Positions 1 to 64,000 of a DNA stretch of 64,000 nt are shown in pieces (the first letter of the stretch is position 1; the number at the start of each line of letters is the position of its first letter). The stretch comes from Gemmatimonadales bacterium. Lineage in GTDB: Bacteria; Gemmatimonadota; Gemmatimonadetes; Gemmatimonadales; GWC2-71-9. Under the pieces are notes generated by a model that saw only the letters and a list, made by a program, of their open reading frames with translations, did not search any database and was not told the origin of the DNA. The translations under genes and the position numbers were made by a program. The stretch lies in NCBI GenBank assembly GCA_035517615.1, contig DATIYM010000007.1:36608-100607 (forward strand). The letters run 5' to 3'.

Positions 1-386
1 AACGCTCCCGCGACGATCTTGCTGACGCTCGGGCGCCACCCCGTCTCGTCGAAGAACCGCTCCATGATGTTTCGCAGCTCCTGCTCGACTTCGGGCCGGT
101 GTTCCAGGACCGCGAGGCAGACCGAGAGAAACGCGGTGTGCGCGCGGTTCAGCGCAGCGGCGTGATGGCGCACCCAGCGTCGCAGCGCGTGCTGGTAGCG
201 CTGGCCGTGCAGCGATCCCGCGATTATGACGCGGTCGTAGCGTTCGGGCCCCAGATCCCGGCCGGCATGACGCGCGTTCACGGCAGTAGCCTCCCAGTGC
301 TCGGAGGCAAACGTATCGGCGACGGCTTCGGCGATTTTCTGGGTGTGCCCGTCGGTGGTTCCATAGACGATCAACACGCGTGGCAT
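1..386 (-). CDS. Flavodoxin-domain protein (HemG-like), 3' end truncated by window edge
   Basis: Not in the ORF track because it runs off the edge. The reverse complement from ATG (cat at 384-386) reads MPRVLIVYGTTDGHTQKIAEAVAD...RYDRVIIAGSLHGQRYQHALRRWV, a flavodoxin-like/HemG-type N-terminus. The + strand ORF 99..449 is its antisense artefact. Confidence 0.6.
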   Translation of the reverse strand, partial: MPRVLIVYGTTDGHTQKIAEAVADTFASEHWEATAVNARHAGRDLGPERYDRVIIAGSLHGQRYQHALRRWVRHHAAALNRAHTAFLSVCLAVLEHRPEVEQELRNIMERFFDETGWRPSVSKIVAGA

Positions 387-616
387 GGCCGCTCCTTGGT
401 GTGCGCTTTGTACATATACGACTCTAGGGCAACCGTGCTTGACGCGTGATGAAATGCGTCTGAAGATTCGTGGTATAAGATTTTTGCTGAGTCTAAAGGT
501 TTCTTCATAGAAGCTTTGCCTGGTCTGGCGGTTGGGCGGGATACGCTATACGGCGTGTTTTCAGCCGGCGCGGCACTCGCGCTGGGTGTGCAGTCATACC
601 ATCACGGAGAGTCCGC

Positions 617-1762
617 ATGTACCTCCCCACGTCCCACCCGTGGGCGGAGGGCGAAACGCTGGGCGCGTATCTCGAAAAACGAGGCGTGACCCGGCGGGAC
701 TTCCTCGCTTTCTGCGCCCAGATGACCACCATCCTCGGGCTTGGCGAGCTGATGACGCCGCGCGTCGCCAGCGCTCTCGCCACGGTGAAGCGTCCCAGTG
801 TGATCTGGTTATCGCTGCAGGAGTGCACCGGTTGCACTGAGTCGGTGCTGCGTACCGAAGCGCCTTCGATCGGCAATCTGGTGCTCGATCTGATATCGCT
901 GGATTTCCAGGAAAACCTCATGGCGGCCGCGGGCCACGCCGCCGAAGGCGCGCTCGCTCAGGCGATGCAGAAGAACGCCGGCGACTATCTCCTGGTCGTC
1001 ACCGGCTCGGTGCCGCTCGCCGATGGTGGGATCTACACGACTATAGCCGGCCGGCCGGTCAAGGAAATTCTCGAGGAAGGCGCGAAGGGCGCCAAGGCGG
1101 TCATCGCCGTCGGGGCGTGCGCGCACTGGGGCAACATCCAGGCATCGCGGCCGAACCCCACCGGAGCCGTGGGCGTGAGCGACATCGTGAAGGACAAGCC
1201 GGTCGTCAACATCGCCGGATGTCCTCCGATTTCCGATGTCATCACGGCCACGATCGTCCACTATCTGACGTTCGGGAAGGTGCCGGCGCTCGATTACGAC
1301 GGGCGCCCGATGTTCGCGTACGGCGCGCGGATTCACGACCAATGTCCGCGGCGCGCGCACTTCGACGCCGGCCAGTTCGTGGAGGAGTTCGATGACGAAG
1401 CGGCCCGCAAGGGCTGGTGCCTGTATCACGTGGGCTGCAAAGGGCCGGCCACCTTCTCGCCCTGTCCCATCTTCATGTGGAATGCCGGGACGAGCTGGCC
1501 GATCGGCGCGGGGCATCCCTGCATTGGCTGCACCGAGCGGCATTTCTGGGATACGATGACGCCGTTCTATGGCCGCTTGCCGGACGTGGCCGGATTCGGC
1601 GTGGAGCGCTATGCCGACACGCTCGGCGCGGCGCTGGCGATCGGGGCGGCCGCGGGCGTGGCGGCGCATGCGGTGGCCACGGGCGTGCATCAGGTTCGCG
1701 AGCGCCGCCGCCTCCCCGTCGTCGAAGGGCAGGGAAAGGGGGACAGCCATGGCGGCCACTAG
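617..1762 (+). CDS. hupS: [NiFe] hydrogenase small subunit, Tat-exported, membrane-anchored
   Basis: 381 aa. Twin-arginine signal (GVTRRDFLAFC). FeS-cluster cysteine motifs QECTGCTES, GACAHWG, GCPP, HPCIGC. Hydrophobic C-terminal anchor. GGAGAG upstream of the ATG. Confidence 0.9.
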   Translation: MYLPTSHPWAEGETLGAYLEKRGVTRRDFLAFCAQMTTILGLGELMTPRVASALATVKRPSVIWLSLQECTGCTESVLRTEAPSIGNLVLDLISLDFQENLMAAAGHAAEGALAQAMQKNAGDYLLVVTGSVPLADGGIYTTIAGRPVKEILEEGAKGAKAVIAVGACAHWGNIQASRPNPTGAVGVSDIVKDKPVVNIAGCPPISDVITATIVHYLTFGKVPALDYDGRPMFAYGARIHDQCPRRAHFDAGQFVEEFDDEAARKGWCLYHVGCKGPATFSPCPIFMWNAGTSWPIGAGHPCIGCTERHFWDTMTPFYGRLPDVAGFGVERYADTLGAALAIGAAAGVAAHAVATGVHQVRERRRLPVVEGQGKGDSHGGH

Positions 1763-3464
1763 AGTCGTCGTCGATCCGATCACTCGGATCGAGGGGCACT
1801 TGCGGATCGAGGCGCAGGCCGAGAACGGGAAGATCACGAATGCCTGGGCCACGTCCACCCAGTTTCGCGGCATCGAGATCATCATGCAGGGGCGCGATCC
1901 CCGGGACGCGTGGGCGTTCACGCAGCGCATCTGTGGCGTCTGCACGGTGGTGCACGCGGTGGCCTCCTGCCGCGCGGTCGAGGACGCACTCGACATCAAG
2001 ATTCCGCCCAACGCGAACATCATTCGCAACCTGATTCACGGGATGCAGTTCGTGCAGGATCACGTGATGCACTTCTATCACCTGCACGCGCTCGACTGGG
2101 TGGACGTGGTGAGCGCGTTGTCCGCCAAGCCGTCGGAGACGGCGGCGATCGCGAAGTCGATTTCGCCCTGGCCGAACAATTCGGAGACGTACTTCGCCGA
2201 GGTACAGAACCGGCTGAAGACGTTCGTGGGATCAGGGCAGCTCGGGATTTTCGCGAACGGCTACTGGGGTCATCCGGCGTACAAACTGCCGCCCGCGGTC
2301 AACCTGCTCGCCGTCGCGCATTATCTCGAGGCGCTCGATTGGCAGCGCGACGTCATTCGGCTGCACACCATTTTCGGCGGCAAGAATCCGCATCCCAACT
2401 TCCTGGTGGGCGGGATGGCCTCGGCCATCAATCTCGAAGCGCGCGCGACCATCAACGCGGCGCGGCTCTCGGAGATCAACGACATGATCGCCCGCACGCA
2501 GCGGTTCGTGGAGCAGGTGTACTTCCCCGATCTGCTCGCGATTGCCGGCTTCTATAAGGAGTGGGCGGCGATCGGCGGTGGCACCGGCAACTACCTCGTG
2601 GCCGGGGAGTTTCCCGAAACCGACGTGCGCGATCTGAACTCCCTCTATTTCCCGCGCGGCATCATCCTCAACAAGGACCTGACCAAGGTCTGGCCGTACG
2701 ATCACAAGCAGGTGCAGGAGTACATCAACAGCTCGTGGTACGAGTACTCGAAGGGTGATGACGCGGGCCTGCACCCGTGGGAAGGCGAAACGAAGGCGAA
2801 GTACACCGGACCGAAGACGCCGTGGACCTATCTCCAGGATGAAAAGAAATACACCTGGATGAAAGCGCCCCGCTACGAAGGGCACGCCATGGAAGTCGGT
2901 CCGCTGGCGCGCATGCTCGTGGCCTACGCCTCGGGACATGAAGACGTGCGGGCGCTCATCAAGGAGCTGATGGATCGTTTGCAAGTGGGCCCTGCCGCGC
3001 TGTTTTCGACACTGGGCCGGACGGCGGCTCGCGGCATCGAGACGGTGTTGATCTCGCGCCGCCTGTCGCACTGGTACACCCAGCTCGTCAACCGCATCAA
3101 GGGTGGCGACACGCAGACGTTCAATCAGGCGAAATGGGATCCCTCCAAGTGGCCGGCGACGGCGCAGGGGTACGGCTTTCTCGACGCGCCTCGCGGCGCG
3201 CTCGGCCACTGGGTACAGATCGACAGCGGCAAGATCTCGCGCTATCAGTGCGTGGTACCGAGCACGTGGAACTGCTCACCGCGCGACGCGAAAGGGCAGC
3301 CGGGCCCCTACGAGGCGGCGCTCATGGATCACCATCCGCTCGTCAAGCCGGATCAGCCGATCGAGATTCTCCGGACGATTCACTCGTTCGATCCGTGCAT
3401 GGCGTGCGGAGTGCACGTGCTCGACGCGACCGGGAACCTCGTCACGTCGGTGAAAGTCCAATGA
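1749..3464 (+). CDS. hupL: [NiFe] hydrogenase large subunit
   Basis: ATG at 1749 gives MAATRVVVDPITRIEGHLRIE and overlaps the small-subunit stop. N-terminal RICGVC and C-terminal DPCMACGVH nickel-ligand motifs, followed by a short C-terminal tail for protease cleavage. The track start at 1569 is an upstream in-frame extension. Confidence 0.92.
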   Translation: MAATRVVVDPITRIEGHLRIEAQAENGKITNAWATSTQFRGIEIIMQGRDPRDAWAFTQRICGVCTVVHAVASCRAVEDALDIKIPPNANIIRNLIHGMQFVQDHVMHFYHLHALDWVDVVSALSAKPSETAAIAKSISPWPNNSETYFAEVQNRLKTFVGSGQLGIFANGYWGHPAYKLPPAVNLLAVAHYLEALDWQRDVIRLHTIFGGKNPHPNFLVGGMASAINLEARATINAARLSEINDMIARTQRFVEQVYFPDLLAIAGFYKEWAAIGGGTGNYLVAGEFPETDVRDLNSLYFPRGIILNKDLTKVWPYDHKQVQEYINSSWYEYSKGDDAGLHPWEGETKAKYTGPKTPWTYLQDEKKYTWMKAPRYEGHAMEVGPLARMLVAYASGHEDVRALIKELMDRLQVGPAALFSTLGRTAARGIETVLISRRLSHWYTQLVNRIKGGDTQTFNQAKWDPSKWPATAQGYGFLDAPRGALGHWVQIDSGKISRYQCVVPSTWNCSPRDAKGQPGPYEAALMDHHPLVKPDQPIEILRTIHSFDPCMACGVHVLDATGNLVTSVKVQ

Positions 3465-4210
3465 GCACGACACGGCATGAAGCCGAGCCGCCCGGCGGGT
3501 TCGCACGCCGGGTTGGCCCCGCGTCGGGGAATTACCGCTGGGTGTATCTGTGGGAGTGGCCGATCCGCGCGATGCACTGGGCGGCCGTGGCGTCGATCGT
3601 CACGCTCGTCGCGACCGGCTTCTACATCGGCGCGCCGTATTTCATGACGAGCGGCGAGGCGAGCAGCCACTTCCTCATGGGCCGGATACGGTTCCTGCAC
3701 TTTGCCGCGGCCGGAGTGCTCGTCGCCACGGCGATTGTCCGTGTGTATTGGCTCATCGCCGGGAATCAGTTCGAGCGCTGGCGCGCCCTGTTCCCCATCC
3801 GCAAGCAGGATTGGATCAACCTGTTCAAGCAGATCAAGTTCTACCTGATGATCCGGCCCGAAGACGCGCCTCAATACCTCGGGCACAATCCGCTGCAGCA
3901 GCTCAGTTACACCGGCCTTTACCTCGTCGCCGGTATCATGGTGGTCACAGGGTTCGCCATGTACGGGCAGTCGCATCCGGGCGGCCTGTGGTACAACTTG
4001 TTCGGCTGGGTGGTCCCGTTTCTGGGCGGCATCCAGATCGTGCACTTCGTGCATCACGTCCTGACCTGGGTGTTTCTCATTTTCCTGCCCGTGCATTTGT
4101 ACCTCGCGCTCCGGGCCGACATTCTCGAGCGTACGGGAACGATCTCGTCGATCATCAGCGGCGGTCGATTCGTGAAGGCGGACGTGGAGTATGTCGATCA
4201 GCCGAAATGA
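3461..4210 (+). CDS. hupC: Ni/Fe-hydrogenase b-type cytochrome subunit
   Basis: ATGA overlap with the large-subunit stop. MSTTRHEAEPP..., polytopic membrane protein with conserved His residues (HWAAV, HFAAA, HFVHHVLTW), typical of HyaC/HupC. Confidence 0.8.
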   Translation: MSTTRHEAEPPGGFARRVGPASGNYRWVYLWEWPIRAMHWAAVASIVTLVATGFYIGAPYFMTSGEASSHFLMGRIRFLHFAAAGVLVATAIVRVYWLIAGNQFERWRALFPIRKQDWINLFKQIKFYLMIRPEDAPQYLGHNPLQQLSYTGLYLVAGIMVVTGFAMYGQSHPGGLWYNLFGWVVPFLGGIQIVHFVHHVLTWVFLIFLPVHLYLALRADILERTGTISSIISGGRFVKADVEYVDQPK

Positions 4211-4712
4211 CGTGAGACGCGGGACTGTGGTGATCGGTCTCGGCAATCCGATCATGGGGGACGATGGGATCGGCATCGCGGCGCTCGAGCGGCTCCGCGA
4301 CACTTGGGATGTCCCGGACGACGTCGAGCTGGTGGACGGGGGTACGTGGGGGCTCACCCTGCTGCCGATCATCGAAGACGCGGGCGCGGTGCTGCTGATC
4401 GACGCGATCGATACTGGGTCAGCCCCGGGGACCGACGCGGTCATCCTCCGCGATCAGCTTCCCAAACACCTCGCGACCAAAGTCTCGCCGCATCAAGTCG
4501 ATCTCCAAGACGTGCTCGCACTGGCGGAATTGCGAGGCACGCTACCCGACCGTACCGTGGCCATTGGCCTGCAGCCCGCGATCGTGGAGATGACGAGCGG
4601 GTTGAGCGACGCGCTCCGCGCGCGGGTCGATCACTTGGTGCTGCTGGTCGTGGGGATGCTCGAGAGCTGGGGACACCGGTGCACAGCGAAGCCGGAGCCC
4701 GCGCGTGCATGA
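4191..4712 (+). CDS. hupD: Hydrogenase maturation endopeptidase (HyaD/HupD/HybD family)
   Basis: VVIGLGNPIMGDDGIGIAAL N-terminal motif and DGGTWG. The start could also be the in-frame GTG at 4212, immediately after the cytochrome b stop. Confidence 0.85.
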   Translation: MSISRNDVRRGTVVIGLGNPIMGDDGIGIAALERLRDTWDVPDDVELVDGGTWGLTLLPIIEDAGAVLLIDAIDTGSAPGTDAVILRDQLPKHLATKVSPHQVDLQDVLALAELRGTLPDRTVAIGLQPAIVEMTSGLSDALRARVDHLVLLVVGMLESWGHRCTAKPEPARA

Positions 4713-4956
4713 AATGAGTATCGCCCTCGAGGTCTGCCGGATCGCCGAGACGCAGGCGCCCCCGGAGCAGGTCGTACGGGTGGGTGTCGAAGTCGGCGAC
4801 GACGCCGGGGTCGAGGTGTCGAATCTCGAATTTTGTCTCGAGGCGTTGCTCAACGAGCCGCCGTTCGCGGGGGCGACGCCCCTGATCAGCCGAGTCCCGG
4901 GAGACGTGCTGCGCGTGAGCTACCTGGATGTGGACGATGGCCGTCCGGACGATTGA
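4705..4956 (+). CDS. hypA: HypA-like nickel insertion protein, short form lacking the zinc-ribbon cysteines
   Basis: GTG start gives the canonical MHEMS nickel-binding N-terminus. Only 83 aa, with no CxxC...CxxC motifs. Lies between the protease gene and hypB with overlaps on both sides. Confidence 0.7.
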   Translation: MHEMSIALEVCRIAETQAPPEQVVRVGVEVGDDAGVEVSNLEFCLEALLNEPPFAGATPLISRVPGDVLRVSYLDVDDGRPDD

Positions 4957-5602: not shown

Positions 5603-5604
5603 CC

Positions 5605-9738: not shown

Positions 9739-9913
9739 CTGGTTTCTCCCCCGTGAGGGTTCTGCATATCAATAGCCATCCAGGATGCCGGGCTGCATGA
9801 GAATCGCATGAACCTGCCATCAGGTTGGTGCCCCGTCTGAAGACTCCTTCATCATCCGTTCACCCACCCGTTGAACGCCTCGCGCTACACTCGAAGTGGA
9901 CACAGGAGGTCCC

Positions 9914-20373: not shown

Positions 20374-20462
20374 TGCGGCCTCCCCTTTGTGGTTTACCGA
20401 GAAATTCCCACGTGCACGCTCGCCGCGGGGGCCTGAGGGAAGTATGAACGCACGATGAGCGT

Positions 20463-22010
20463 TCATTGGCCCGCGAGCATCCTGTCCCAGCCATAGACGT
20501 CGTCCCGGAATTGCAGCGTGCCATCGGGATCGACCCACGCCGTCCAGTACGACACGTAAACCGGGATGCCGCGCTCGAGCGTCACGACGCGCGTTTCTGG
20601 CCCGCGCATGGCGCTGTCCACCGAGTCGCGTGGCCACTGCGCCGAATCGGCGAGCAGGATGCGGGCGAGCTGGGCCGCTCGCTCGGCGCGTATGCAGCCG
20701 TGACTGAAGGCTCGTATGCGCTGCTCGAATAACGAACGCTGCGGCGTATCGTGGATGTAGGAGCCGAAGCGGTTTGCGAACTCGAATTTCACGCCGCCGA
20801 GCGGGTTGGTCGCCCCGGGAGCTTGCACGAGACGCAGGGAATACGAGGAGTCGTTGAGGGCGCGCCAATCGACGGCGTGCCGATCCACCGGGCGCCACGC
20901 GCCGTTGGTCCACCGGAGTACGGTTATGCGCTCGCGCGCGAGATAGCCGGTGTCCCGCAACACGAAAGGGACGACCTCGGCAAGCACGATCTTCTTCGGA
21001 ATGTCCCACGACGGGTGAAAGATGAGGTTCGTGACCCGCGAGATGATGATGGGCGTGGGCCAATCGACACGTCCGACGATCGCGCGCATCGTCAGCACGG
21101 CCGTATCGTGACCCACGAGGGCGAGGGAGAACGCGGCGCTGTTGACCATGATGTAGCGCTCGCCCAGGCGGCGGGGCAGCCAGCGCCAGCGCTCGAGATT
21201 CAGCTCGATCTGGCGTATGCGCTGTTCGACCGGGACGTTCAGCGCAGCGCGCGTGGCCGCTCCGACAATCCCATCCGCTTCGAGTCCGTGCTTCGCTTGA
21301 AATCGGAGGACACGCCGAGCCAGCGCTCCATCAAAGCGGTCGTCCGCAGTCTCGGTGGCGTCTCCGTCGTCTTCGGCCGCAAGCCGACGTCTCAAGTCGA
21401 GCACGCGGATACCGCGCGCGCCGGGTGCCAGATCCGGCCCGTTCGAGAGCGAATCCCAGCCGCCCCGCTCGGCGATGGAGTGATAGCGCTCCAGCGCCGC
21501 GCGAAGGCCCGTGTATCCGCGCTGCGGCGGAGCGAGGCGCCGCAGTACGGTATCCAGGGGAAGGGAATCGAGGGCCCGGCCGAGGTCGCTGAACCGGATC
21601 GGCGCGGGTGCCGCCGACCAGAGGCTGTCTCTCGGCCCGGGACGGAATCGGCCGGCGGAGACGTCCCGGGCGTACGCGAGCAGGATGCGCGTCAGCCTGA
21701 GCTCGGTCTCAATCGCCGAATCGGGCCCGGTCGTTCGCGATTCGAGCGCGTAGCGCCGTGGGTCCAGGCCATCTTCGTCCGCGTGTCCGAGGACGGTCGT
21801 GAGCCGCATCGCCGCTGGTTTCACCGTGGTATCCGAAATCCAGAACGGACGATACGCCCGCGACCCGTAGACCTCGATCAGGACTCGGCGCTCGGAAGAA
21901 TCTGAATCTGCGGCCACCCGGGCCGCGAGGAGGTTTGCCGTTCCCTGAGCCGACACGATCGGGGAGAGCGCGACCTGCAGTCCGCATAGCACAAACCACG
22001 ACCCCTTCAC
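20463..22010 (-). CDS. L,D-transpeptidase (YcbB/LdtD-like) with peptidoglycan-binding domain
   Basis: 515 aa. Signal peptide, PG-binding-like LRFQAKHGLEADGIVG, and the YkuD catalytic motif SHGCIR. Confidence 0.85.
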   Translation of the reverse strand: MKGSWFVLCGLQVALSPIVSAQGTANLLAARVAADSDSSERRVLIEVYGSRAYRPFWISDTTVKPAAMRLTTVLGHADEDGLDPRRYALESRTTGPDSAIETELRLTRILLAYARDVSAGRFRPGPRDSLWSAAPAPIRFSDLGRALDSLPLDTVLRRLAPPQRGYTGLRAALERYHSIAERGGWDSLSNGPDLAPGARGIRVLDLRRRLAAEDDGDATETADDRFDGALARRVLRFQAKHGLEADGIVGAATRAALNVPVEQRIRQIELNLERWRWLPRRLGERYIMVNSAAFSLALVGHDTAVLTMRAIVGRVDWPTPIIISRVTNLIFHPSWDIPKKIVLAEVVPFVLRDTGYLARERITVLRWTNGAWRPVDRHAVDWRALNDSSYSLRLVQAPGATNPLGGVKFEFANRFGSYIHDTPQRSLFEQRIRAFSHGCIRAERAAQLARILLADSAQWPRDSVDSAMRGPETRVVTLERGIPVYVSYWTAWVDPDGTLQFRDDVYGWDRMLAGQ

Positions 22011-22164
22011 GAGGCCTTCAGCCTCCCTTCTCAGGCGCCGAGGTTTCGACAGATCCGAACGCGGAGCGACGATGATTGCCGTTAACGACGACAGGAGCGA
22101 CCGGCGCGACCATGATTGCGGCGCTCCGGGTACTTCATCGCAGCGGCTTCAGTTCGTTCGTCGC

Positions 22165-22782: not shown

Positions 22783-22861
22783 CCTCCCGAATCAAGGGTC
22801 CCGGTTCAGGAGTCAACCTGCACGAGCCGCCCTAAAGGCTTGGTGAAGGCTCCGTGAGCGA

Positions 22862-23893
22862 TCACTCACCGAGTTTGAGCACGGCTCTTCCCGAGAGCAG
22901 AGCGGTTGCGACGCAGAGCGGGAGGAAGAAGTAAATGACGCGGTAGGCCACGAGCGCGCTGAAGATGGCGCCGCGGCGATATGAGCCACCCAGCATGGCG
23001 AGCACGACGGCCTCGAATATGCCGATCCCCCCTGGCAGCTGCGCGATCAGCGCCGCGATCTGGCCGAGGATGAACACCTCGAAAAAGCCAAAGAAGGCGA
23101 CGGCCTGTGAACCGGGGAGCAGCACGAAGAGCGCTGCTCCTGAGAGTGTCCAGTCCGCGAGCGACACGACGATTTGTTGCACGGCAAACGATGGCGACGG
23201 TGGTTCGAGCCTCCAGCGCATCACGTGGAACGGCTTGCCCCAGAGACTCCAGGCCAGATACGCGAGGACCCCCGCCAAGGCAACGAAGCCGAGTGGCTGC
23301 GTCGAAGACACACGCAGCCCGATGAGACGGGGCACGGCGGCTGGCTCGAGCAGGAAGGCCAGGGCCGCAGCTGTGAGCAATCCCACCGTGTAGGTGACCA
23401 GGTTGAGGAATACGAGCTCGGTCGTCTCGGCGGTGGTGAGCCCCCAGCGCGAATAGAACCGATAGCGGACAGACCCGCCCACGAACAGCGAGAGGGGAAT
23501 GTTGTTGGCGAGTGCGTATCCGATGAACGATGCGAGCACAATCCTGCTGATCGCGAGGGAACGGCGGAGGAACCGCAGCGCGATGATGTCGTAGCCGGCC
23601 AGCGCGAGATAGCCGAGGACAGTCAGGGCGAATGAGGCGACGAGCCGATTCGGGCGGAGCGAACGGAATTCTCCGATGAGCTCGTGTATCGAGACTTCGC
23701 GGAGTTGGCGGCGCACGATCCAGAGAGCTCCCGCGAGCAACGCGAGCTCGACGATCCAGCCCAATGCGCGCAGCAGTGGCCGTGATCGGGCGGTGGGCCG
23801 CTCGGCGGTCGGTGTGCGTGTCGCCACGGGGACCGAAGCTGCATGCGGGATTTCCCGCGCGCCAGCGCGGCCTCGAACACTCAGGATTCTCAT
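22862..23893 (-). CDS. Flippase-like / lysyl-PG-synthase-TM-like (UPF0104) membrane protein
   Basis: 343 aa polytopic membrane protein whose pattern is consistent with the LPG_synthase_TM family. Assignment by eye. Confidence 0.5.
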   Translation of the reverse strand: MRILSVRGRAGAREIPHAASVPVATRTPTAERPTARSRPLLRALGWIVELALLAGALWIVRRQLREVSIHELIGEFRSLRPNRLVASFALTVLGYLALAGYDIIALRFLRRSLAISRIVLASFIGYALANNIPLSLFVGGSVRYRFYSRWGLTTAETTELVFLNLVTYTVGLLTAAALAFLLEPAAVPRLIGLRVSSTQPLGFVALAGVLAYLAWSLWGKPFHVMRWRLEPPSPSFAVQQIVVSLADWTLSGAALFVLLPGSQAVAFFGFFEVFILGQIAALIAQLPGGIGIFEAVVLAMLGGSYRRGAIFSALVAYRVIYFFLPLCVATALLSGRAVLKLGE

Positions 23894-23958
23894 CCTGGGT
23901 TCACCATTCCCTCACTCGAGCCGGGCGAGCGTACCACAGCATCTGAAATGGGGGATTT

Positions 23959-33675: not shown

Positions 33676-33826
33676 GGAACCTCCGTAATTGGATTCCCCG
33701 GTAACCTGCCCCACGAGCCATGAAGAATCGCTGAGATCGCCTGCAAGCTTCTCTCGCATCGCCTTCACCGTCCCCTCACGGGGCCGATGCCAGCATTCGA
33801 AAGTCTCATTCACCCGGAGGATTCGT

Positions 33827-36725: not shown

Positions 36726-37961
36726 TCAGAGTCCGTGAGCTCGATCGGCGCGGGCGGGAAATCGTGGAATGCGCACCATGAACGTCGAGCCGTTGCCAGG
36801 CGTGCTCTCGAGCGCGATCTCGCCTCCCATCATCCGCGCCAGCCGGCGTGACAACGTCAGGGCCAATCCAGTTCCTGCGATCTCCTGCTGTGATCCAACG
36901 TAGGCGTTGAACACTTGCTCGTGGCGTTCCGGCGCAATGCCCGGCCCCTGATCGGCAATACAGAAGGACAGCGTCTCGTCGGTGGCCCGCACGGTGATCT
37001 CGACACGGGCCGTCGGAGGACTGTGTTGAATCGCGTTCCGTAGGAGATTCACGAGGATTTGCCGGACGCGCTTGCAGTCGACCAGGGCAGGGATCGCAGT
37101 GTGAATTGCCGGGATTTCCAGCCGCACACCCGCGCTATCAGCCATGGGCCCGACCGTCCGCAGCGCTTCTGCGAGAATGCTGTCGGCGCCGGCCTCCTCA
37201 GGCGTGATCCGCAGTCGTCCCGCATCCAGGCGCGAGAGATCGAGCAGGTCGTTCAGCAGCTGCACCGAATCCTCGGCTGCTTCCATGGCGTGCAGCGCGG
37301 CGGGAGGTGGCGACTTCCCGCTGCCGCGTACCAGAAGGTCGAGCCACCCGTACACCCCCGTGAGCGCATTGCGCAGTTCGTGATTCATCATCGCGTAGAA
37401 CCGGTCACGCGAAGACTGAAACTCCCGCAGCTGTTGCATCAGCCGGGCATTTTCGATGGCAACGCCGGCTTTGCGCGCCAGCAGCATCGCGATCCGTTCG
37501 TCCTCGGCGCTGAATTCGTCCGCCCCCTGCTTCTCCGTGAGGTAGAGATTTCCGAACACTCGGTGTTGCGCCATGATCGGCACGCCCAGAAACGATCGCA
37601 TGGCCGGATGATGCGACGGGAATCCGTACCGTGCGGCATGCTGCTGGATATCGGCGATGCGCACGGGACGCGGGTCGCGAATCACGACGCCCAGCAGTCC
37701 GTGCCCGCTGGGCAACGCCCCAATTCGGTCGCGCTGTGTGGCCGTTAACCCCGATGTGACAAACTCCACCAGCGCCGTGTGTTGTTCGTTGAGCACTCCC
37801 AGCGCCGCATACCGCGCGCCCACGATATCCCGGGCGGCGTCCGCGACGCGTTGCAACACGCCGCCCAGCGTATGCTCGGCGAAGATATCGAGGCCCGCGG
37901 AAAGCAGTCGCTCGAGCTGCGCTCGCGGTTGGAGCTGTGTGGTGACTCGTGGTGGGGCCAT
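36726..37961 (-). CDS. Soluble GAF-HisKA-HATPase sensor histidine kinase, DevS/DosT-like GAF
   Basis: 411 aa with no TM segments. GAF region: ARYAALGVL...LVEFVTSGL...LPSGHGLLG...YGFPSHHPAMRSFLGVPI...VFGNLYLTEK. H-box MMNHELRNALT. HATPase N/G boxes. Confidence 0.8.
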   Translation of the reverse strand: MAPPRVTTQLQPRAQLERLLSAGLDIFAEHTLGGVLQRVADAARDIVGARYAALGVLNEQHTALVEFVTSGLTATQRDRIGALPSGHGLLGVVIRDPRPVRIADIQQHAARYGFPSHHPAMRSFLGVPIMAQHRVFGNLYLTEKQGADEFSAEDERIAMLLARKAGVAIENARLMQQLREFQSSRDRFYAMMNHELRNALTGVYGWLDLLVRGSGKSPPPAALHAMEAAEDSVQLLNDLLDLSRLDAGRLRITPEEAGADSILAEALRTVGPMADSAGVRLEIPAIHTAIPALVDCKRVRQILVNLLRNAIQHSPPTARVEITVRATDETLSFCIADQGPGIAPERHEQVFNAYVGSQQEIAGTGLALTLSRRLARMMGGEIALESTPGNGSTFMVRIPRFPARADRAHGL

Positions 37962-41051: not shown

Positions 41052-41258
41052 GGAATACTTGCCTCTGATCATGAACACAGGCGCTCCTTGATGATCAAAC
41101 CTTAGAGATCCAATGATGAACACCAGCGCCCTTCGGTCATGAAGATCCGCTTATGGTTCCCAATCCCGATGCAGCGCACGTTTCCGCCAGACTTCAGGAA
41201 GATTTCAGGTGACCTGGAGCAGGTTCGCGGGCGAACCGAACTTCGGATGAGGCGTGTG

Positions 41259-42619: not shown

Positions 42620-42809
42620 GGTCAGAAGAACCTCTTCACGGCACTTTCAGACTCTCCTAACACAACGCTGATTACCCTGTGCTCAAGGGTCGGGCAGTTA
42701 GGAGGTGCTGGTTGCAGTTCCGATACCTCCAGGACTCCGATACTCGGGGCCTTCCGTAAGCGGTCGTTCGCCGCTTGCCCGACCCAATCCCGTTGCTGGG
42801 CCTTGCCAC

Positions 42810-45018: not shown

Positions 45019-45252
45019 ATGAAAGCCTACGTGTTTATCGGCGCTTCGACTGCCGCCGGTCCGGCAATGGTGGCCCAACAGGTCCGCAGGATTCCGGGTG
45101 TCCAAACCGCGGATCTCTGTTGGGGACAGCCCGACATTATCGCGGTGGCGGAAGCCGCCGACGTGCGGGCGCTCCAGGAACTGGTACTGAACAAGATCCA
45201 GCAGGTTACCGGCGTGAGCCAGACCGATTCGCACCTGGTCTGCGAGCCGTAG
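45019..45252 (+). CDS. Stand-alone Lrp/AsnC ligand-binding (RAM) domain protein
   Basis: 77 aa: MKAYVFI......V...IPGV..A....G..D.I...EA.D...L...V...I....GV..T. No HTH domain. Confidence 0.6.
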   Translation: MKAYVFIGASTAAGPAMVAQQVRRIPGVQTADLCWGQPDIIAVAEAADVRALQELVLNKIQQVTGVSQTDSHLVCEP

Positions 45253-47930: not shown

Positions 47931-47995
47931 GAAACACTCAGGGCGATTTCAGAAAGGCTTCACGGGAGAGCGGGTAGTGTGGGGCATCAGCTCCC

Positions 47996-48487: not shown

Positions 48488-48592
48488 GTCCGGCTCATCC
48501 CGCGCTGCAGCGGTTCTTCACGCGGGGTTCACGGACTCCTCAGATGCTCCCGATAGGCTTGAGGATAAGCGAAGCAACCTACGGAGGCGGTT

Positions 48593-50900: not shown

Positions 50901-51097
50901 GGCTTCCTCCTGTATTGCACGACCGAATCTTGTCACCGCGGGAATGAACGGGCGCTGAGGATCATACGAACGTTTCCGATGAAGCTCTCTTCCCGTTGCG
51001 TTTGGATCGTCTTCAGGCCCTAATCGATACCCTGCCATTACCAGGAGGACGGGCCGTGAATGGTTCTGCCGGCGTCCAGAGGAGAGTCGAGAGCTCG

Positions 51098-54539: not shown

Positions 54540-54657
54540 TCGCCCATTACCGGCGTCGGGCACGGGATGCATGGTTCTTGCAAGTTCCTTCATATCCACT
54601 TTAACGCGCCGCGCGCACACTCCTAGGCGAGAGCACGAACCAGTAGAGGAGGGTGCC

Positions 54658-55341: not shown

Positions 55342-55344
55342 GCG

Positions 55345-58893: not shown

Positions 58894-59817
58894 CTATGTA
58901 AATGCCGGCTCCGCCCTCGATACTCCGCTTCTCTCCGCTGCCTTGACCGTCACCGGCGCATGGGCCGGCACCACGAGCAATGATGTGGGCAGCTGATTCA
59001 AGAGCCGTTCGGTGACGCTGCCGATCAAGAGGCGATCGACGAAGCCCTTGCCATGCGAGCCTACAACGAGCAGGTCCGCGTGCCAGTCGGCAACTTCGCG
59101 CGCGATCGCGTCGAACGCGAGTCCGTGCCGCGTGATCTTCTCGGCGCTGGGATCGAGCACCAGCGGCCACACCTCGCGCTTCACGTGCTCGTCCAGCAGG
59201 GTGTAATACGACTCCACGTCGTAGGTCGGCGCGTCCGGAAGGATCGGCAGCGGCTCGAACGCGCACATGACGCGCAGCTCGGCTCCCAGCAGCGTCGCGA
59301 ACCGCTCCGCGGTCTTGATCGTCGGCTGCGCCGCATAGGACTGATCCGCGGCCACGAGAATCCGCCGAATCGGCGCGCGCAGCCCGCCCGTTACGAACAG
59401 CGGCACGTCGGTGGTGCGCGCAACATTCAGGGCGGTGCTTCCCGCGAACCAGCGCTCGAGCAGCGTATGATGTTTGCCGCCGAGCACGATCAATCCGGCA
59501 TCGAGCTCGGTCGCGACTTCCTTCAGCACCCAGGTCGGACGCCCGGGACGAATCATGAGGTGCTCCGCAAGCTCGGGTGGAACGATTCCCCACAGTCCAT
59601 GCTGCACTTCGTCCTTCGCCTGGGCCAGGTGCGATTCGCTCAATTCCTGCGCCTGCTCCGGCAGTTCCGCCATCGCGAAGGCGGTCAATACGTCACGCGC
59701 GGCGTGAACGAGCTGGCAGCTCGTTCCCGCGGTGTTCGCCAAGTTGGCGCCGACCGCGCCAGCCCATGCCGCCTCCGGCGAGCTGTCGATACCGACCACA
59801 ATGGGTTTCCACGCCAT
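58894..59817 (-). CDS. Tandem universal stress protein
   Basis: GGAGGG RBS before ATG (cat at 59815-59817). Two Usp domains with GGKHHTLLERWFAGSTALNV and GSHGKGFVDRLLIGSVTERLL. Confidence 0.85.
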   Translation of the reverse strand: MAWKPIVVGIDSSPEAAWAGAVGANLANTAGTSCQLVHAARDVLTAFAMAELPEQAQELSESHLAQAKDEVQHGLWGIVPPELAEHLMIRPGRPTWVLKEVATELDAGLIVLGGKHHTLLERWFAGSTALNVARTTDVPLFVTGGLRAPIRRILVAADQSYAAQPTIKTAERFATLLGAELRVMCAFEPLPILPDAPTYDVESYYTLLDEHVKREVWPLVLDPSAEKITRHGLAFDAIAREVADWHADLLVVGSHGKGFVDRLLIGSVTERLLNQLPTSLLVVPAHAPVTVKAAERSGVSRAEPAFT

Positions 59818-59984
59818 AATGCCCTCCGGAAGAAGTTCCTCACATCGTCTTCGTGTCCTGAACTTCGCGCGCGCACGATGAAGCGAACGTGATGATTGCT
59901 CCAAGAATTCTAGAGGCGGGGTTCATCTCGACTTCATGGCGACGGACGGATATTCCGATCGGACACAGGGGAGGGAGCGGTGCC

Positions 59985-60413: not shown

Positions 60414-61655
60414 GTGCAGGGGAACGATTCCACTGAGGTGGCACGCGTTCGCCGCCGGTTCGAGCTGCTGCTCGATGCCGGCGTCGCGATCTTCTCGGAG
60501 CACACGCTCGCGGCGGTGCTGCAGCGGGTGGTCGACTCCGCTCGAGAAGTGGTCGGTGCCAAGTACGCTGCCCTGGGCGTGCTGTCGGCCGACGGGAAGG
60601 GCCTGTCCGAGTTCGTTACTTCTGGCCTCTCGGACGCCGAGCGCGCGCATATCGGCGACCTGCCGAGTGGTCGCGGGTTGCTCGGTCTCGTGATCCGCGA
60701 GCCCCATCCGATTCGTTCCGCCGATATCAAACACCACCCCCAGCGCTTCGGATTCCCGCCCAATCATCCGCCGATGCAATCGTTTCTCGGCGTCCCGGTG
60801 GCTGTGCAGGGTTGCGTATTCGGCAACCTGTATCTCACCGAAAAGGTTGGAGGGACTGAATTCACCGGCGAAGACGAGGCGATCGCCGTCTTCCTCGCGG
60901 CCAAGGCGGCTGTGGCGGTTGAAAACGCGCGACTCCACGAGAAAAGACAGGAATTGTTGCAGCAGGTGCAGGGCATGCAGCGCCAGCGCGATCTGTTCTT
61001 CGCGATGATGAACCATGAGCTACGCAACGCGCTCACCGGCGTGTATGGCTGGGCGGAGCGGCTCGTGCGCGGCAAGGGAAGCCCGGAATCGAAGGGCCAG
61101 GCGGCTCAGGAGGTCTACGAAGCCGCGGAACGGACCATCACACTGCTCAACAATTTTCTCGATCTCACCCGACTCGATGCGGGGAAAGTGCGCCCCGTAT
61201 TCCGCGATCTCGATGTGCACGGCGAGATCGGCCGGGTGCTCGCGAACGTGCGTCCGGCCGCGGAGGCGAAGCGGATCCTGCTGCACGAAGAGTACGCGAA
61301 CGGCATCGCCCTGGTGCGTACCGATCCCGTGCGCCTGGAGCAGATTCTCGTCAACCTGATGAGCAACGCGATCCGCCACAGTCCGGAAGGGGGCACGATC
61401 ACCGTACGCGCTGAGTCGCAGAATGGCGAGGTCCTGTTTTGCGTGCGGGATCAGGGCCCCGGCATTCCACTCGAGCTGCAGAGCCGCATCTTCGAGCCCT
61501 TCGAGCGGTTCGATCCACATTCCGGTTTGGGCACCGGGCTTGGGCTTCCCGTGTCGCGCCGCCTGGCGGAAGTGTTGGGGGGCCGGCTGACCGTGGAGAG
61601 CGCCCCCGGCGCGGGAGCGGCGTTCACCCTCACCCTGCCGGTGTCCGCTGCATGA
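60414..61655 (+). CDS. Soluble GAF-HisKA-HATPase sensor histidine kinase, DevS/DosT-like GAF (paralog of 36726..37961)
   Basis: AKYAALGVL...LSEFVTSGL...LPSGRGLLG...FGFPPNHPPMQSFLGVPV...VFGNLYLTEK. H-box MMNHELRNALT. G-boxes GTGLGLPV. Confidence 0.8.
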   Translation: MQGNDSTEVARVRRRFELLLDAGVAIFSEHTLAAVLQRVVDSAREVVGAKYAALGVLSADGKGLSEFVTSGLSDAERAHIGDLPSGRGLLGLVIREPHPIRSADIKHHPQRFGFPPNHPPMQSFLGVPVAVQGCVFGNLYLTEKVGGTEFTGEDEAIAVFLAAKAAVAVENARLHEKRQELLQQVQGMQRQRDLFFAMMNHELRNALTGVYGWAERLVRGKGSPESKGQAAQEVYEAAERTITLLNNFLDLTRLDAGKVRPVFRDLDVHGEIGRVLANVRPAAEAKRILLHEEYANGIALVRTDPVRLEQILVNLMSNAIRHSPEGGTITVRAESQNGEVLFCVRDQGPGIPLELQSRIFEPFERFDPHSGLGTGLGLPVSRRLAEVLGGRLTVESAPGAGAAFTLTLPVSAA

Positions 61656-61712
61656 AGAATTCCTCAGAAATGCTTTAGCGCCGGTTCAAATGGAACCCCT
61701 TAGGCTGATCTC

Positions 61713-62399
61713 ATGAAAATTCTCGTGGTCGAAGACGATCGCAAAGTTGCCGGCTTCATCGAGCAGGGTTTGCGCGAAGAGGGGTATGCGGTGGACGTCG
61801 CGCTCGACGGCGAGCAGGCGACCATGAATGCGCATGTGTACGAGTACGACCTGGTTGTGCTCGATGTCATGCTCCCCAAGAAAACCGGGCTTCAGATCGC
61901 GAGCGAGCTGCGGCGCGAGGGGCGGAAGACGCCGATTCTCATGCTCACCGCGCGCGACACGACCGAAGATGTGGTCCGGGGCCTCGACGCCGGCGCCGAC
62001 GATTACCTCACCAAGCCCTTCAAGTTCGACGAGCTGCTCGCCCGGGTGCGTGCGCTCGTCCGGCGGGGCGGAGCCAGTCGAACGGAGCTCTTGAGCTACG
62101 GGCCGGTCGAGCTCGACCGCTTGAAGCACAAGGCGAAGGTGAACGGCAAGAAGCTCGATCTGACCCCGAAGGAGTTTCAGCTGCTCGAGCACTTCCTGCT
62201 GCGCCCCGAAGAGGTCGTGCGCCGCACGGAGCTGCTCGAGAAAGTGTGGGACCTGCACTTCGACCCGGAGAGCAACGTGGTCGACGTGCACGTGGGGAAT
62301 CTCCGCCGCAAGCTGCACGAGGCGGCGCACGTGGAGCTCCTGCGCACCGTGCGCGGAGTCGGGTTCCGGCTGCAATCCGGCGATCAGGAAGACGAATGA
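61713..62399 (+). CDS. OmpR-family response regulator (CusR/CopR-like)
   Basis: MKILVVEDD, phospho-acceptor DLVVLDVMLP, and a winged-helix C-terminus LTPKEFQLLE...VRGVGF. Confidence 0.9.
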   Translation: MKILVVEDDRKVAGFIEQGLREEGYAVDVALDGEQATMNAHVYEYDLVVLDVMLPKKTGLQIASELRREGRKTPILMLTARDTTEDVVRGLDAGADDYLTKPFKFDELLARVRALVRRGGASRTELLSYGPVELDRLKHKAKVNGKKLDLTPKEFQLLEHFLLRPEEVVRRTELLEKVWDLHFDPESNVVDVHVGNLRRKLHEAAHVELLRTVRGVGFRLQSGDQEDE

Positions 62400-63811
62400 C
62401 GCAGTCGCTCCGGCGGACACTCGCCGTGCGGTTCGCGGCGACGATGGCCGCCGGACTGGCGCTCGTGTCGGGAGCGTTGTTCCTCGGCATGTCGTATCTC
62501 ATGCACAAGCAGTTCGACCAGGCGCTGGCCGGGGCCGAAGTGCTCGTGGCGGGCCAGGTCGAGAACGGATCCCCCCCTTCGATTTCCGACTTGCTGACCT
62601 CCGCGGATCCGGCGGCCTATGCGCGCACCGTGAACCGCTACGCCGCGCTGCGCCGGCCTTCCGGGGAGCTGATCCGCGCGTTCCCCCTGATCGCGAGCGA
62701 CCTCCCCGTTGATTCGGCGGCGCTCGAGCGCGCCCGCGTCGGGTCGCCGATTTGGGTCGACGGTCTCTGGAAGGGCCAGCCGGTCCGAAGCCTTTATGGG
62801 ATCGTCCCCGAAGCCGGCACCGGAGCCCAGCAGGTGATGCAGGTCGCGGCATACCTCGGCCCGCTGCATCACACCGAAAACCTCGTGCTCCTCGCGCTTG
62901 CAGGCGTGGTGGTGCTCGGCACCGTGGCGACGCTCGTGGGCGGCTGGAATTTCGTGGGCTCCGCGGTTGAGCCCGTCCTCGAGATTACCCGGCAGGCGAC
63001 GCAGATCGAAGCCGGGACGCTGTCGCGGCGCATTGCGGCACATGCCGGAACCGACGAGTACCGCGGGCTCGTGGCCGTGCTCAATCGCATGCTCGAGCGG
63101 CTCGACAACGCCTTCCGAACGCAACGCCGTCTTACGGCCGACGTGGGGCATGAGCTGCGCACGCCGCTCACGGCATTGCGCGGCGAGATCGAGGTCGCGT
63201 TGCGCACCGATCGATCGCCGCGCGAGTATCAGCTGGTATTGAGGAGCGCGCTCGAGGAAATCGCCCATCTCAGCGCGATGAGCGACGACCTGCTGCTCAT
63301 TACGCGCGCCGAGAGTCATCAAGTCGAGCCGCATCGCGTCCCCACCGATCCCAACGCGCTGGTGCGGGCCAGCGTCGCGCAGGTGCGCCGCCGGCTGGAA
63401 GAGAAGGATCTGCGACTCGACGAGTCGCTCGATCGGGCCGTCCAGGACGTGGCGCTCGACCCGGAGCTCGTGTCGCGCGCGCTCGATCACCTGCTCGATA
63501 ACGCGGTGAAGTACACGCCGGAGGGCGGGCGCATCCGCGTCACGACCGAGCCGGCGGCCCCCGCCACGCGCGGCGTCCGGTTCGGAGTCGAGAATACGGG
63601 CTCCGCGATCCCTTCCGCGGACCTGCCGCACATTTTCGAGCCGTTCTTTCGCGCGGACCAGTCGCGGACGCGGGCCGGCGGCGGCCCCGGGTTGGGGCTC
63701 GCCCTGGTCGCGGCAATTGCCGAGCTGCATGGCGGGGCGGCACGCGCCTCGAACCGCAACGGCAGCAGCGTGCGGCTGGAAGTGGAGATCCCCGCGCCGG
63801 CAGCGGCCTGA
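62396..63811 (+). CDS. Membrane sensor histidine kinase with periplasmic loop and HAMP (CusS-like)
   Basis: ATGA overlap with the regulator stop. Two TM segments flank a ~150-aa loop. H-box DVGHELRTPLT, and the C-terminal G2 box GGPGLGLALV. Confidence 0.85.
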   Translation: MTQSLRRTLAVRFAATMAAGLALVSGALFLGMSYLMHKQFDQALAGAEVLVAGQVENGSPPSISDLLTSADPAAYARTVNRYAALRRPSGELIRAFPLIASDLPVDSAALERARVGSPIWVDGLWKGQPVRSLYGIVPEAGTGAQQVMQVAAYLGPLHHTENLVLLALAGVVVLGTVATLVGGWNFVGSAVEPVLEITRQATQIEAGTLSRRIAAHAGTDEYRGLVAVLNRMLERLDNAFRTQRRLTADVGHELRTPLTALRGEIEVALRTDRSPREYQLVLRSALEEIAHLSAMSDDLLLITRAESHQVEPHRVPTDPNALVRASVAQVRRRLEEKDLRLDESLDRAVQDVALDPELVSRALDHLLDNAVKYTPEGGRIRVTTEPAAPATRGVRFGVENTGSAIPSADLPHIFEPFFRADQSRTRAGGGPGLGLALVAAIAELHGGAARASNRNGSSVRLEVEIPAPAAA

Positions 63812-63844
63812 AGGGGAACGGAAGCGGGAAGGGGGAAGTGTAAG

Positions 63845-64000
63845 ATGAAGCTCCTGCGAGCGTATCCACTTCCGTTGCTCGCGGGCCTCGGTCTCCTGAG
63901 CGGGCTCGGTGCCCGCTTTTTGTTTCACGCCCCCACGGTTGCGAACCGCATCGATCTGGTCACGCTGGTCGTCGGCGGGACGCCGCTCGTATTGCAGACG
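63845..64000 (+). CDS. Membrane protein, 5' fragment only (possibly a P-type ATPase; not determinable)
   Basis: MKLLRAYPLPLLAGLGLLSGLGARFLFHAPTVANRIDLVTLVVGGTPLVLQT... Truncated by the window end. Confidence 0.3.
   Translation, partial: MKLLRAYPLPLLAGLGLLSGLGARFLFHAPTVANRIDLVTLVVGGTPLVLQT

Follow-up and report, generated by a model that had tools for sequence, protein, structure and literature searches.

A candidate DosR-regulon analogue under an OmpR-type regulator in a Gemmatimonadales genomic island

INTRODUCTION

Are the genes of a bacterial stress cluster merely neighbors, or are they controlled together, and if so by what kind of switch? This question is raised by a 64-kb stretch of contig DATIYM010000007.1 from a soil Gemmatimonadales metagenome-assembled genome (MAG), which groups universal stress proteins (USPs), CBS-pair proteins, nitroreductases, and sensor kinases resembling DevS and DosT, all families familiar from the DosR regulon of Mycobacterium tuberculosis. 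Gemmatimonadota are among the most abundant soil phyla; to our knowledge, almost nothing is known about how they regulate stress survival, and no description of a DosT-type sensor joined to an OmpR-type regulon was found in the literature searched. Here, we describe a direct repeat shared by about 18 promoters of this stretch, nominate the OmpR-type response regulator g68 as the protein that binds it, and consider the DosT-like GAF kinases g67 and g42 as candidate gas sensors.

We refer to the entire 64-kb stretch as the window. The gene set comprises 70 genes predicted by a codon log-odds caller, and all 70 proteins were scanned against Pfam. The inspected DNA included a further 10-kb flank on each side (84 kb in total), and the comparison set consisted of 80 related Gemmatimonadales loci from species-level genomes (1.2 Mb). 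The 80 best genomic relatives of g67 all belong to Gemmatimonadales or Gemmatimonadota MAGs, and an initial annotation of the DNA was therefore correct in placing the organism outside Actinobacteria.

RESULTS

A direct repeat with an 11-bp period marks the island promoters

The initial annotation had proposed a motif search of the intergenic regions. Such a search yielded a shared cis-element composed of tandem (C)TTCA units repeating every 11 bp. The pair TTCA-N7-TTCA occurs eight times in the window against an expectation of 0.73, a count reached by none of 100 shuffles, and all eight occurrences are intergenic. Within intergenic DNA, the signal is specific to its spacing: N7 gives 8 pairs, whereas each other spacing from 0 to 21 gives 0-1, and a relaxed half-site is found 22 times at spacing 7 compared with at most 4 times at any other. 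Arrays of three units behave likewise: with 10 or more matches out of 12, 17 intergenic arrays were counted at period 11 versus 0-2 across periods 7-15, and at the 9/12 threshold the counts were 29 versus 3-5 at other periods. The spacing peak recurs in the 1.2 Mb from related genomes, where N7 is found 140 times and N18 126 times over a background of ~15-25. We are confident that a real shared operator exists.

The sites lie mostly 25-100 bp upstream of their gene's start codon and are oriented with the gene. Each promoter carries two to four units, the last of which lies ~11-12 bp upstream of a -10-like TAnnnT. Alignment of 146 sites from the window and related loci revealed a weaker third unit one period upstream and, in fixed phase with the repeat, a -10-like A at +28 and T at +32, with a second register 11 bp further on. 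Direct repeats adjoining the -10 element define the class II activator layout of PhoB/OmpR-type regulators, which served as the basis for our comparison; by this analogy, the layout of the TTCA arrays is that of a PhoB/OmpR-type class II activation site. About one-third of sites have an additional feature, an inverted copy (TGAAG-N4-CTTCA) that often precedes the first direct unit (e.g., 61653-61690 and 9837-9862).

Operators of two known hypoxia regulators were not enriched. The DosR box GGGAC-N4-GTCCC has three one-mismatch matches in the window versus 3.95 expected, all inside called genes, and the FNR/Anr box TTGA-N6-TCAA has none. The arrays precede ~18 promoters that account for ~40 of the 70 genes, and given this shared cis-element, genes that were previously only co-located become predicted to be co-regulated. 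The 10-kb flanks contain V-type ATPase and ordinary housekeeping genes and not one further TTCA site, which sets the left border of the island at the flavodoxin promoter and its right border at the regulator operon. We therefore describe the locus as a bounded genomic island of ~64 kb, much of which is one predicted regulon. Its G+C content is 65% and its composition is even along the window; tRNA and Rfam scans detected neither tRNA genes nor Rfam families in the window, and no integrase or transposase was seen in the Pfam scan of its 70 proteins. A complete V/A-type ATPase operon with no TTCA sites (L086, positions 1-7634) adjoins the island on its left side, past the flavodoxin gene.

The regulator operon carries the best conserved array

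The only response regulator in the inspected 84 kb is g68 (Table 1). Its best PDB matches are PrrA, DrrD, and MtrA, and it scores below the cutoff of the NCBIfam PhoB model (214 < 296 bits). A NarL-type DosR is absent from the window, as the initial annotation had stated: NarL, GerE, or LuxR helix-turn-helix (HTH) domains were found in 0 of the 70 proteins, and the sole response regulator is of the OmpR type. The kinase gene g69 overlaps g68 in the arrangement of a canonical operon partner, and g70 closes the operon. That gene, cut by the window end, corresponds to a possible P-type ATPase fragment noted in the initial annotation and likened to mycobacterial ctpF. The fragment is real, but the likeness was rejected: g70 is of the P1B heavy-metal type rather than the P2 type of ctpF. 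The full-length protein has 7qbz, CopA, and ZntA as its best PDB matches, a TPC transmembrane motif, and no HMA domain.

The spacer between g67 and g68 is a conserved promoter of the form TGAAGnTTCCTTCA-N6-CTTTAGA-N4-GTTCAAcgc-N10-TAGnCT, followed after ~7-9 nt by the ATG. Among 81 orthologous promoters, the array has at least 10 of 12 matches in 65 and at least 9 of 12 in 74. On the strength of this conserved, predicted autoregulatory site, g68 is likely to bind the TTCA repeats. Two details of the spacer deserve mention. The TGAAG of the inverted copy contains the g67 stop codon and is among the best conserved positions. The predicted -10 element TAGGCT (within 61689-61715) ends ~6-9 nt before the ATG, as it does in ~20 loci with 50-bp spacers, and because this distance is so short, the g68 mRNA may be leaderless or nearly so.

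Two cytoplasmic kinases carry a DosT-like GAF domain

Directly upstream of g68, and in an operon with the CBS gene g66, lies g67, one of two GAF-HisKA-HATPase_c kinases in the window; the second, g42, is its paralog at 50% identity. Both had been likened to DevS/DosT in the initial annotation, with the suggestion that their GAF domains be checked for grouping with those proteins, which they do. The g67 GAF matches the GAF-A domain of DosT (PDB 2vzw, E=2e-41) and that of DevS (2w3d, E=5e-35); across both kinases, identity of the GAF to DevS/DosT GAF-A is 45-53%. In DevS, His149 is the proximal heme ligand and Tyr171 is the distal, ligand-discriminating residue (PMC4082495). By alignment, the equivalents of both (H147 and Y169 in DosT) are conserved in g67 and g42, and the position of DevS Glu87 is Gly in both, as it is in DosT. 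The proximal His is kept in 78 and the distal Tyr in 75 of 84 g67 orthologs, and a diverse sample of 91 DosT-like GAF family representatives shows the proximal His without exception. Judging from these residues, g67 and g42 probably report O2, NO, or CO through the heme-type GAF.

The remainder of the two proteins departs from the mycobacterial pattern. A single GAF stretch at residues ~30-170 leads directly into the HisKA domain, and neither kinase has the tandem GAF-A plus GAF-B arrangement. The dimerization domain is HisKA (PF00512) rather than HisKA_3 (PF07730) in both, as first annotated, and their H-boxes are identical (MMNHELRNALTGVYGW). Such combinations are not confined to this locus. 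At E<=1e-30, the DosT-like GAF domain comprises 1,827 clusters (50% identity), and among 91 mid-sized representatives, 52 carry HisKA_3 cores and 18 carry HisKA cores. One HisKA-type member of the family is a Euzebya entry. The family also includes giant proteins of 2,000-3,500 amino acids with 9-14 tandem copies of the DosT-like GAF (P0135, P0137, P0151, and P0167).

Related genomes retain the kinase, the regulator, and the sites

In 79 of the 80 genomes, the gene immediately downstream of the g67 ortholog is a g68 ortholog. At a median of 86%, g68 identity is unusually high for a regulator, and kinase identity across these loci is 60-88%. The g68-g69 pair is present in 66-67 of the 80 loci; among the remainder are contigs that stop right behind the regulator gene. 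Of 599 genes preceded by a spacer of 40 bp or more, 224 had a site upstream. When the first gene downstream of each site was counted, orthologs of g66-g69 were excluded, as these are present by construction. USPs then occupied that position in 57 of 133 cases compared with 3 of 133 controls (Fisher p=6e-17). Individual ortholog clusters gave consistent splits: 38 with and 4 without a site for the g65-type USP, 19 and 2 for a second USP type, 21 and 3 for CBS proteins, and 10 and 0 for ABC (ATP-binding cassette) ATPases; as the 80 loci are orthologous, the USP and cluster counts measure conservation and not independent events. The site-bearing set in related loci also includes ABC ATPases, flavodoxin_5, CBS, baeRF, HSP20, BON, Cpn60, and E1-E2 ATPase proteins.

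The regulator operon is longer in many relatives. Its usual order is regulator, HAMP kinase, proteins of 137, 46, 158, and 540 amino acids, and a P1B ATPase, with gaps of -4 to +16 bp. The 540-residue protein is subunit I and the 158-residue protein subunit II of a ba3-type (B-family) cytochrome c oxidase (1ehk/1xme, E=1e-121 and E=7e-31, respectively), the 137-residue protein is a single-domain globin (1tu9, E=2e-18), and the 46-residue protein sits at the expected place of oxidase subunit IIa. Globin and oxidase are found in the regulator operon of ~38-40 of the 80 loci (among them L002, L011, L012, L014, and L015), and 44 of the 80 have the P1B ATPase. In the genome studied here, the operon has only regulator, kinase, and ATPase, the oxidase and globin having been lost or never present. 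ba3 oxidases serve at low O2, and an autoregulated promoter over a globin and a B-family oxidase, beside a DosT-like sensor, therefore fits microaerobic adaptation. Since the ATPase usually follows the oxidase and globin, the arrangement suggests that it supplies copper to the oxidase rather than acting in detoxification. As circumstantial support, cultures of G. phototrophica raise expression of a high-affinity oxidase, hemN, and a USP at 10% O2 (PMC11406998).

Membership of the predicted regulon

The initial annotation had read the window as a DosR-like gene set throughout. Co-regulation is predicted for the ~40 of 70 genes behind the shared repeat but not for the rest. No site was detected for the hydrogenase/hyp cluster, the ligase, glucan phosphorylase, g36-g38 (eRF1-like protein, GroEL, and HPF-CSD), or g42, nor for the NUDIX gene, the L,D-transpeptidase, the multiheme cytochrome, or g51-g53; with so many genes lacking a detectable site, the set is not one window-wide regulon. 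Coordinates of the arrays and of the principal regulatory genes are collected in Table 1.

Table 1. TTCA arrays and regulatory genes of the island (window coordinates; fractions give matches over a three-unit array)
Feature	Position	Strand	Context
Array	439..475	-	Upstream of g01 (flavodoxin_5); left island boundary; flavodoxin_5 downstream of sites in 3 related loci
Array	9798..9823	-	Divergent, upstream of g13 (VKOR-like, 9454-9738, -); conserved in L087
Array	9837..9873	+	Upstream of g14-g18: unknown protein, Acg nitroreductase g15, short-chain dehydrogenase/reductase (SDR), MgtC/DUF4010, DUF4404
Array	20434..20470	-	Upstream of g25 (59-aa coiled-coil protein, 20194-20373, -)
Array, strong, 11/12	21995..22031	+	No + strand gene downstream; overlaps start of g26 (L,D-transpeptidase), antisense into g27; unexplained
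Array	22833..22869	-	Upstream of g27 (CBS, 22165-22776, -)
Array	23889..23914	+	Upstream of g29-g35 (23959-30694): HlyD, 2 ABC ATPases, 2 ABC-2 permeases, VC0807-family protein, tandem USP
Array	33742..33778	+	Upstream of g39-g41 (33827-36685): BON x3, MacB/FtsX, M23 peptidase
g42	36726..37961	-	Second DosT-like GAF-HisKA kinase, paralog of g67; 411 aa; no regulator adjacent, no TTCA site
Array, weak, 9/12	41095..41120	-	Upstream of g45 (VC0807 family)-g44 (USP), 39868-40982, -
Array, strong, 11/12	41182..41218	+	Upstream of nitroreductase pseudogene (~41260-41639), then g46 (amidohydrolase)
Array	42624..42660	+	Upstream of g47-g48 (DUF3300, DUF2950); 45 bp from alternative GTG start 42705
Array, 11/12	47937..47962	+	Upstream of g54 (146 aa, no family)
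Array, 11/12, four units	48506..48542	+	Upstream of g55 (YceI-like)
Array	50945..50970	-	Upstream of g58 (alpha/beta hydrolase)-g57 (DksA/TraR zinc finger)
Array, weak, 9/12	50990..51015	+	Upstream of g59-g61: unknown protein, nitroreductase g60, phosphoenolpyruvate (PEP) synthase
Array, 9/12	54578..54603	+	Upstream of g62-g64 (54658-58859): BON x3, phosphoketolase, acetate kinase; BON ortholog first after site in L001
Array, weak, 9/12	59879..59904	-	Upstream of tandem USP g65 (58894-59817, -)
Array	59900..59936	+	Upstream of g66 (CBS)-g67 (GAF kinase) operon
g67	60414..61655	+	Cytoplasmic sensor kinase: one DosT/DevS-like GAF, HisKA, HATPase_c (Pfam); 413 aa
Three-unit repeat CTCAG-N6-TTTAG-N6-TTCAA	61663..61688	+	25 bp upstream of g68; predicted autoregulatory site
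g68	61713..62399	+	OmpR/PhoB-family response regulator; Response_reg E=1e-30, Trans_reg_C E=9e-26 (Pfam)
g69	62396..63811	+	Membrane HAMP-HisKA kinase; overlaps g68 by 4 bp, canonical operon partner (Pfam)
g70	63845..64000	+	N-terminal 52 codons of a P1B-type ATPase gene (599 aa) that runs past the window end; closes the g68 operon

In a small check limited to three metagenome loci with Acg orthologs, the g14-g18 site and its -10 element TACACT were kept in two (ortholog 80% identical) while the flanking DNA had diverged. For the array without a gene in its own orientation (21995..22031), transcription of an antisense RNA or of a small gene missed by annotation is conceivable, as is action in the reverse orientation. 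The start of g47 (DUF3300) is probably the GTG at 42705 rather than 42837, which places its array at a typical distance.

Other gene families of the window

Family assignments made from the sequence alone in the initial annotation were checked with Pfam, NCBIfam, and PDB profile searches, by which nearly every named family was confirmed. Three USPs are present, with tandem domains in g35 (29864-30694) and g65 and a single domain in g44 (39868-40320), as are three CBS-pair proteins (g27, g49, and g66). The Acg-type double nitroreductase is g15 (10339-11391), which aligns with PDB 2ymv over its full length (E=4e-23, residues 27-340) and, at 335.9 bits against a cutoff of 199, with the NCBIfam model NF047509 (Rv3131_FMN_oxido), making it an Acg family FMN-binding oxidoreductase. 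Two small nitroreductases had been counted. One, g60, is intact, but the other is a frameshifted pseudogene (~41324-41639). This decayed paralog occupies a 668-bp gap (40983-41650) as two pieces, out of frame with each other and with 55% and 75% identity to g60, and keeps a near-perfect three-unit TTCA site upstream.

The eRF1-like protein is g36 (30701-31489), of the baeRF family, and its score against the model for the Rv2629 family ("ribosome hibernation factor") is below threshold. GroEL is g37 (31486-33108), with no GroES alongside, and the predicted hibernation-factor fusion is g38 (33118-33768, - strand), in which S30AE (residues 37-129) is joined to a cold-shock domain (CSD, residues 145-205) that replaces the usual C-terminal domain of long hibernation promoting factor (HPF). 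g38 is first in an operon with g37 and g36, and no TTCA site was detected for that operon. The ATP-dependent DNA ligase is g21. The [NiFe] hydrogenase, accompanied by cytochrome b, a maturation protease, and hypA-E, is of the group-1 membrane-bound type. Its best PDB match is 3myr (A. vinosum), followed by Hyd-5/Hyd-1, far from the mycobacterial Huc/Hhy type. With no site upstream and this group-1 rather than Huc/Hhy identity, it was rejected as a DosR-like target.

Further content named at the outset was also recovered, namely two triple-BON proteins, a multiheme cytochrome, MacB and ABC-2 exporters, and DUF3300/DUF2950 proteins, and the internal paralog pairs proved real. The VC0807-family membrane proteins (no Pfam family) at 29205-29840 and 40317-40982 are 55% identical, and each lies directly upstream of a USP gene; these pairs, both in site-bearing operons, look like a duplicated two-gene module. 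Directly after the CBS gene g49, a 77-residue protein (45019-45252) consists of an AsnC/Lrp ligand-binding domain alone, without an HTH. The gene call at 19083-19653 is uncertain: a relative in L028 aligns with the + strand (19336-19560), whereas the caller took a weak - strand open reading frame (g23). Homologs of this region adjoin the GAF kinase in ~20 related loci.

DISCUSSION

A model for the island and the evidence against it

We propose that a DosT-type heme sensor is wired to an OmpR-type regulon, making the island an analogue of the DosR regulon. For this full model, gas sensing included, we estimate a probability of roughly 55% from the sequence evidence. Phosphorylated g68 would bind the TTCA repeats and activate its own operon (g68, g69, and g70) together with the island promoters. 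These promoters would drive the USPs, CBS proteins, Acg and small nitroreductases, BON proteins, flavodoxin, phosphoketolase/acetate kinase, PEP synthase, and ABC exporters. Input would come from the cytoplasmic kinases g67 and g42 through a single heme-type GAF, the active kinase being the deoxy or the NO/CO-bound form, as in DosT. The membrane kinase g69 would add a second input signal, a role also compatible with the copper-based alternative considered below. In evolutionary terms, recombination would have brought the sensor module together with a HisKA core, an OmpR-type regulator, and a direct-repeat operator.

Several observations weigh against this model. In g67 and g42, both the H-box and the dimerization and histidine phosphotransfer (DHp) region are unlike those of g69 (H-box DVGHELRTPLTALRGE), which leaves synteny as the sole argument for phosphotransfer from the GAF kinases to g68. 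No TTCA site is detectable for g42 itself, and the site-free genes include the hydrogenase/hyp cluster, the ligase, glucan phosphorylase, and g36-g38. The counts from related loci, as stated above, speak to conservation. The remaining points concern metals. The top NCBIfam match of g68 is cztR_silR_copR and that of g69 is the heavy-metal sensor cztS_silS_copS, a P1B ATPase gene follows the pair, and the TTCA repeat resembles the CopR box of Corynebacterium glutamicum. There, CopR binds TGAAGATTTnnTGAAGATTT, a direct repeat of 11-bp period whose reverse complement contains TCTTCA (PMC3140484).

Alternative explanations

These metal-related features suggest an alternative in which the locus is a copper response of the CopRS/CusRS type. 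g69 would sense periplasmic metal, g68 would be a CopR-type regulator, and g70 an efflux or metallation ATPase, leaving the GAF kinases separate or modulatory. Genes of the multicopper-oxidase type do occur in related loci, but Cu-oxidase genes are not enriched behind sites (5 versus 7 controls). The NCBIfam matches of g68 and g69 both fall below their curated cutoffs (232 < 279 and 238 < 293 bits, respectively). Histidines flanking the g69 sensor region recall CusS/CinS; however, H37 and H158/H159 are not majority residues at their positions in 25 orthologs, and no solved PDB structure, metal sensors included, matches the sensor domain. The copper-sensor reading of g69 was accordingly rejected as a primary assignment and kept only as a rival. 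Characterized CopRS/CusRS regulons are tiny, whereas USP, CBS, and nitroreductase genes dominate here, and the usual position of the ATPase after ba3 oxidase and globin suggests copper delivery to the oxidase. We consider a copper response unlikely.

Another alternative is a general stress or stationary-phase regulon. In this case, g68 and g69 would respond to an envelope or other signal, the DosT-like kinases would signal elsewhere, and their adjacency would be historical. The canonical overlap of the regulator and kinase genes and the differing DHp of g67/g42 are in keeping with such an arrangement, as are the many envelope-related targets (BON, MacB, M23, ABC-2, and VC0807) and the response of USPs to many stresses. 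The pairing has nonetheless been retained in 79 of 80 species-level genomes, among which the kinase is 60-88% identical, and this is hard to square with a purely historical adjacency. The CBS-GAF kinase operon, moreover, carries its own site, no second response regulator is encoded within 84 kb, and related genomes place a globin and a high-affinity oxidase within the regulator operon. This account strikes us as doubtful.

The repeats might instead be bound by a regulator encoded elsewhere, with g68 a target rather than the master. Sites of different OmpR-family regulators look alike, and the inspected DNA represents 84 kb of the genome. Against this, the most conserved and most complete array across 81 genomes is the one preceding g68, the sites cluster around the g68 two-component system and stop at the island borders, and the 86% median identity of g68 is as expected for a regulator with many operators. 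We regard control by another regulator as quite improbable. Finally, chance or a compositional artefact, which might be entertained because USP, CBS, and nitroreductase families are common and intergenic DNA is more AT-rich than coding DNA, is effectively refuted by spacing and period peaks measured within the same intergenic DNA, by their recurrence in 80 other genomes, and by the fixed phase of sites to the -10 and their conservation while flanks diverge.

Implications

The heme-GAF model offers a testable regulon, complete with an operator sequence, a candidate regulator, candidate gas sensors, and ~18 promoters in one genome, and conserved across at least 80 species-level genomes. It bears on the evolution of dormancy regulons and provides a non-pathogenic system for heme-GAF signaling. 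The DosT-type heme GAF emerges as a mobile sensor module of ~1,800 protein clusters, about one-fifth of them on HisKA cores, and a DosR-like gene set can therefore run under a quite different output module. More tentatively, and at slightly less than even odds in our estimation, the combination of DosT heme-GAF, HisKA, and OmpR-type regulator in Gemmatimonadales would be an independent dormancy switch with an operator of its own, (C)TTCA at an 11-bp period, and the same toolkit (USP, Acg nitroreductase, CBS, BON, fermentative ATP genes, and high-affinity oxidase) would have been captured at least three times, by DosR, by Anr/FNR, and by an OmpR-type regulator. If this is true, the toolkit and not the regulator would be the conserved unit of bacterial hypoxic persistence, and sequence would predict the persistence of an abundant soil phylum.

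Comparison with known systems

The operator and regulator have a close architectural counterpart in the pho box of PhoB/OmpR-type systems, with which they share direct repeats of 11-bp period that replace the -35 element and lie ~10-12 bp upstream of the -10, autoregulation of the regulator (predicted here), and a receiver joined to a winged helix. The repeat unit here is (C)TTCA rather than CTGTCAT, however, and no pst or pho genes belong to the predicted regulon. CopRS of C. glutamicum likewise pairs an OmpR-type regulator with a TGAAGA-type 11-bp repeat and has a P-type ATPase and copper enzymes nearby (PMC3140484). In contrast to the ~18 sites within 64 kb described here, CopR has one genomic site; the predicted targets in the island belong mostly to the USP, CBS, and nitroreductase families, the system includes a kinase with a heme-type GAF, and the candidate metal ligands of g69 are not conserved.

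The sensors and gene content point to DosRST of M. tuberculosis. Both systems have a heme-type GAF-A with proximal His and distal Tyr and two paralogous soluble sensor kinases, and the DosR regulon shares USPs, Acg-family and small nitroreductases, and CBS proteins with the island, which also holds an Rv2629-like baeRF and an S30AE factor. The baeRF (g36) and HPF-CSD (g38) genes of the island lack the shared site. The kinases here have one GAF and HisKA and are paired with an OmpR-type regulator, whereas DosRST combines GAF-A and GAF-B with HisKA_3 and a NarL-type regulator, and the DosR operator is a palindrome as opposed to a direct repeat of 11-bp period. The island additionally encodes a membrane kinase, has a P1B ATPase in place of CtpF, and belongs to the phylum Gemmatimonadota.

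In organization, a close counterpart is the lxa locus of Burkholderia cenocepacia, a contiguous island of ~50 genes that is activated by low oxygen in a non-actinobacterial aerobe (Sass et al. 2013, PMC3721108). Like the island described here, lxa encodes USPs, BON ("phospholipid-binding") proteins, a nitroreductase, acetate kinase, cytochromes, and a cation ATPase, and one shared motif lies upstream at ~17 intergenic points (PMC3721108). The lxa motif, however, is the FNR/Anr inverted repeat TGA-N6-TCA, whereas TTGA-N6-TCAA is absent from the window, and no CRP/FNR regulator (cNMP-binding or Crp HTH) was found in the Pfam scan of its 70 proteins. The regulator and sensor types thus differ, and low-oxygen induction has been measured for lxa while it is inferred here. 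By analogy, the island would function like the DosR regulon and the lxa locus, yet it belongs to neither.

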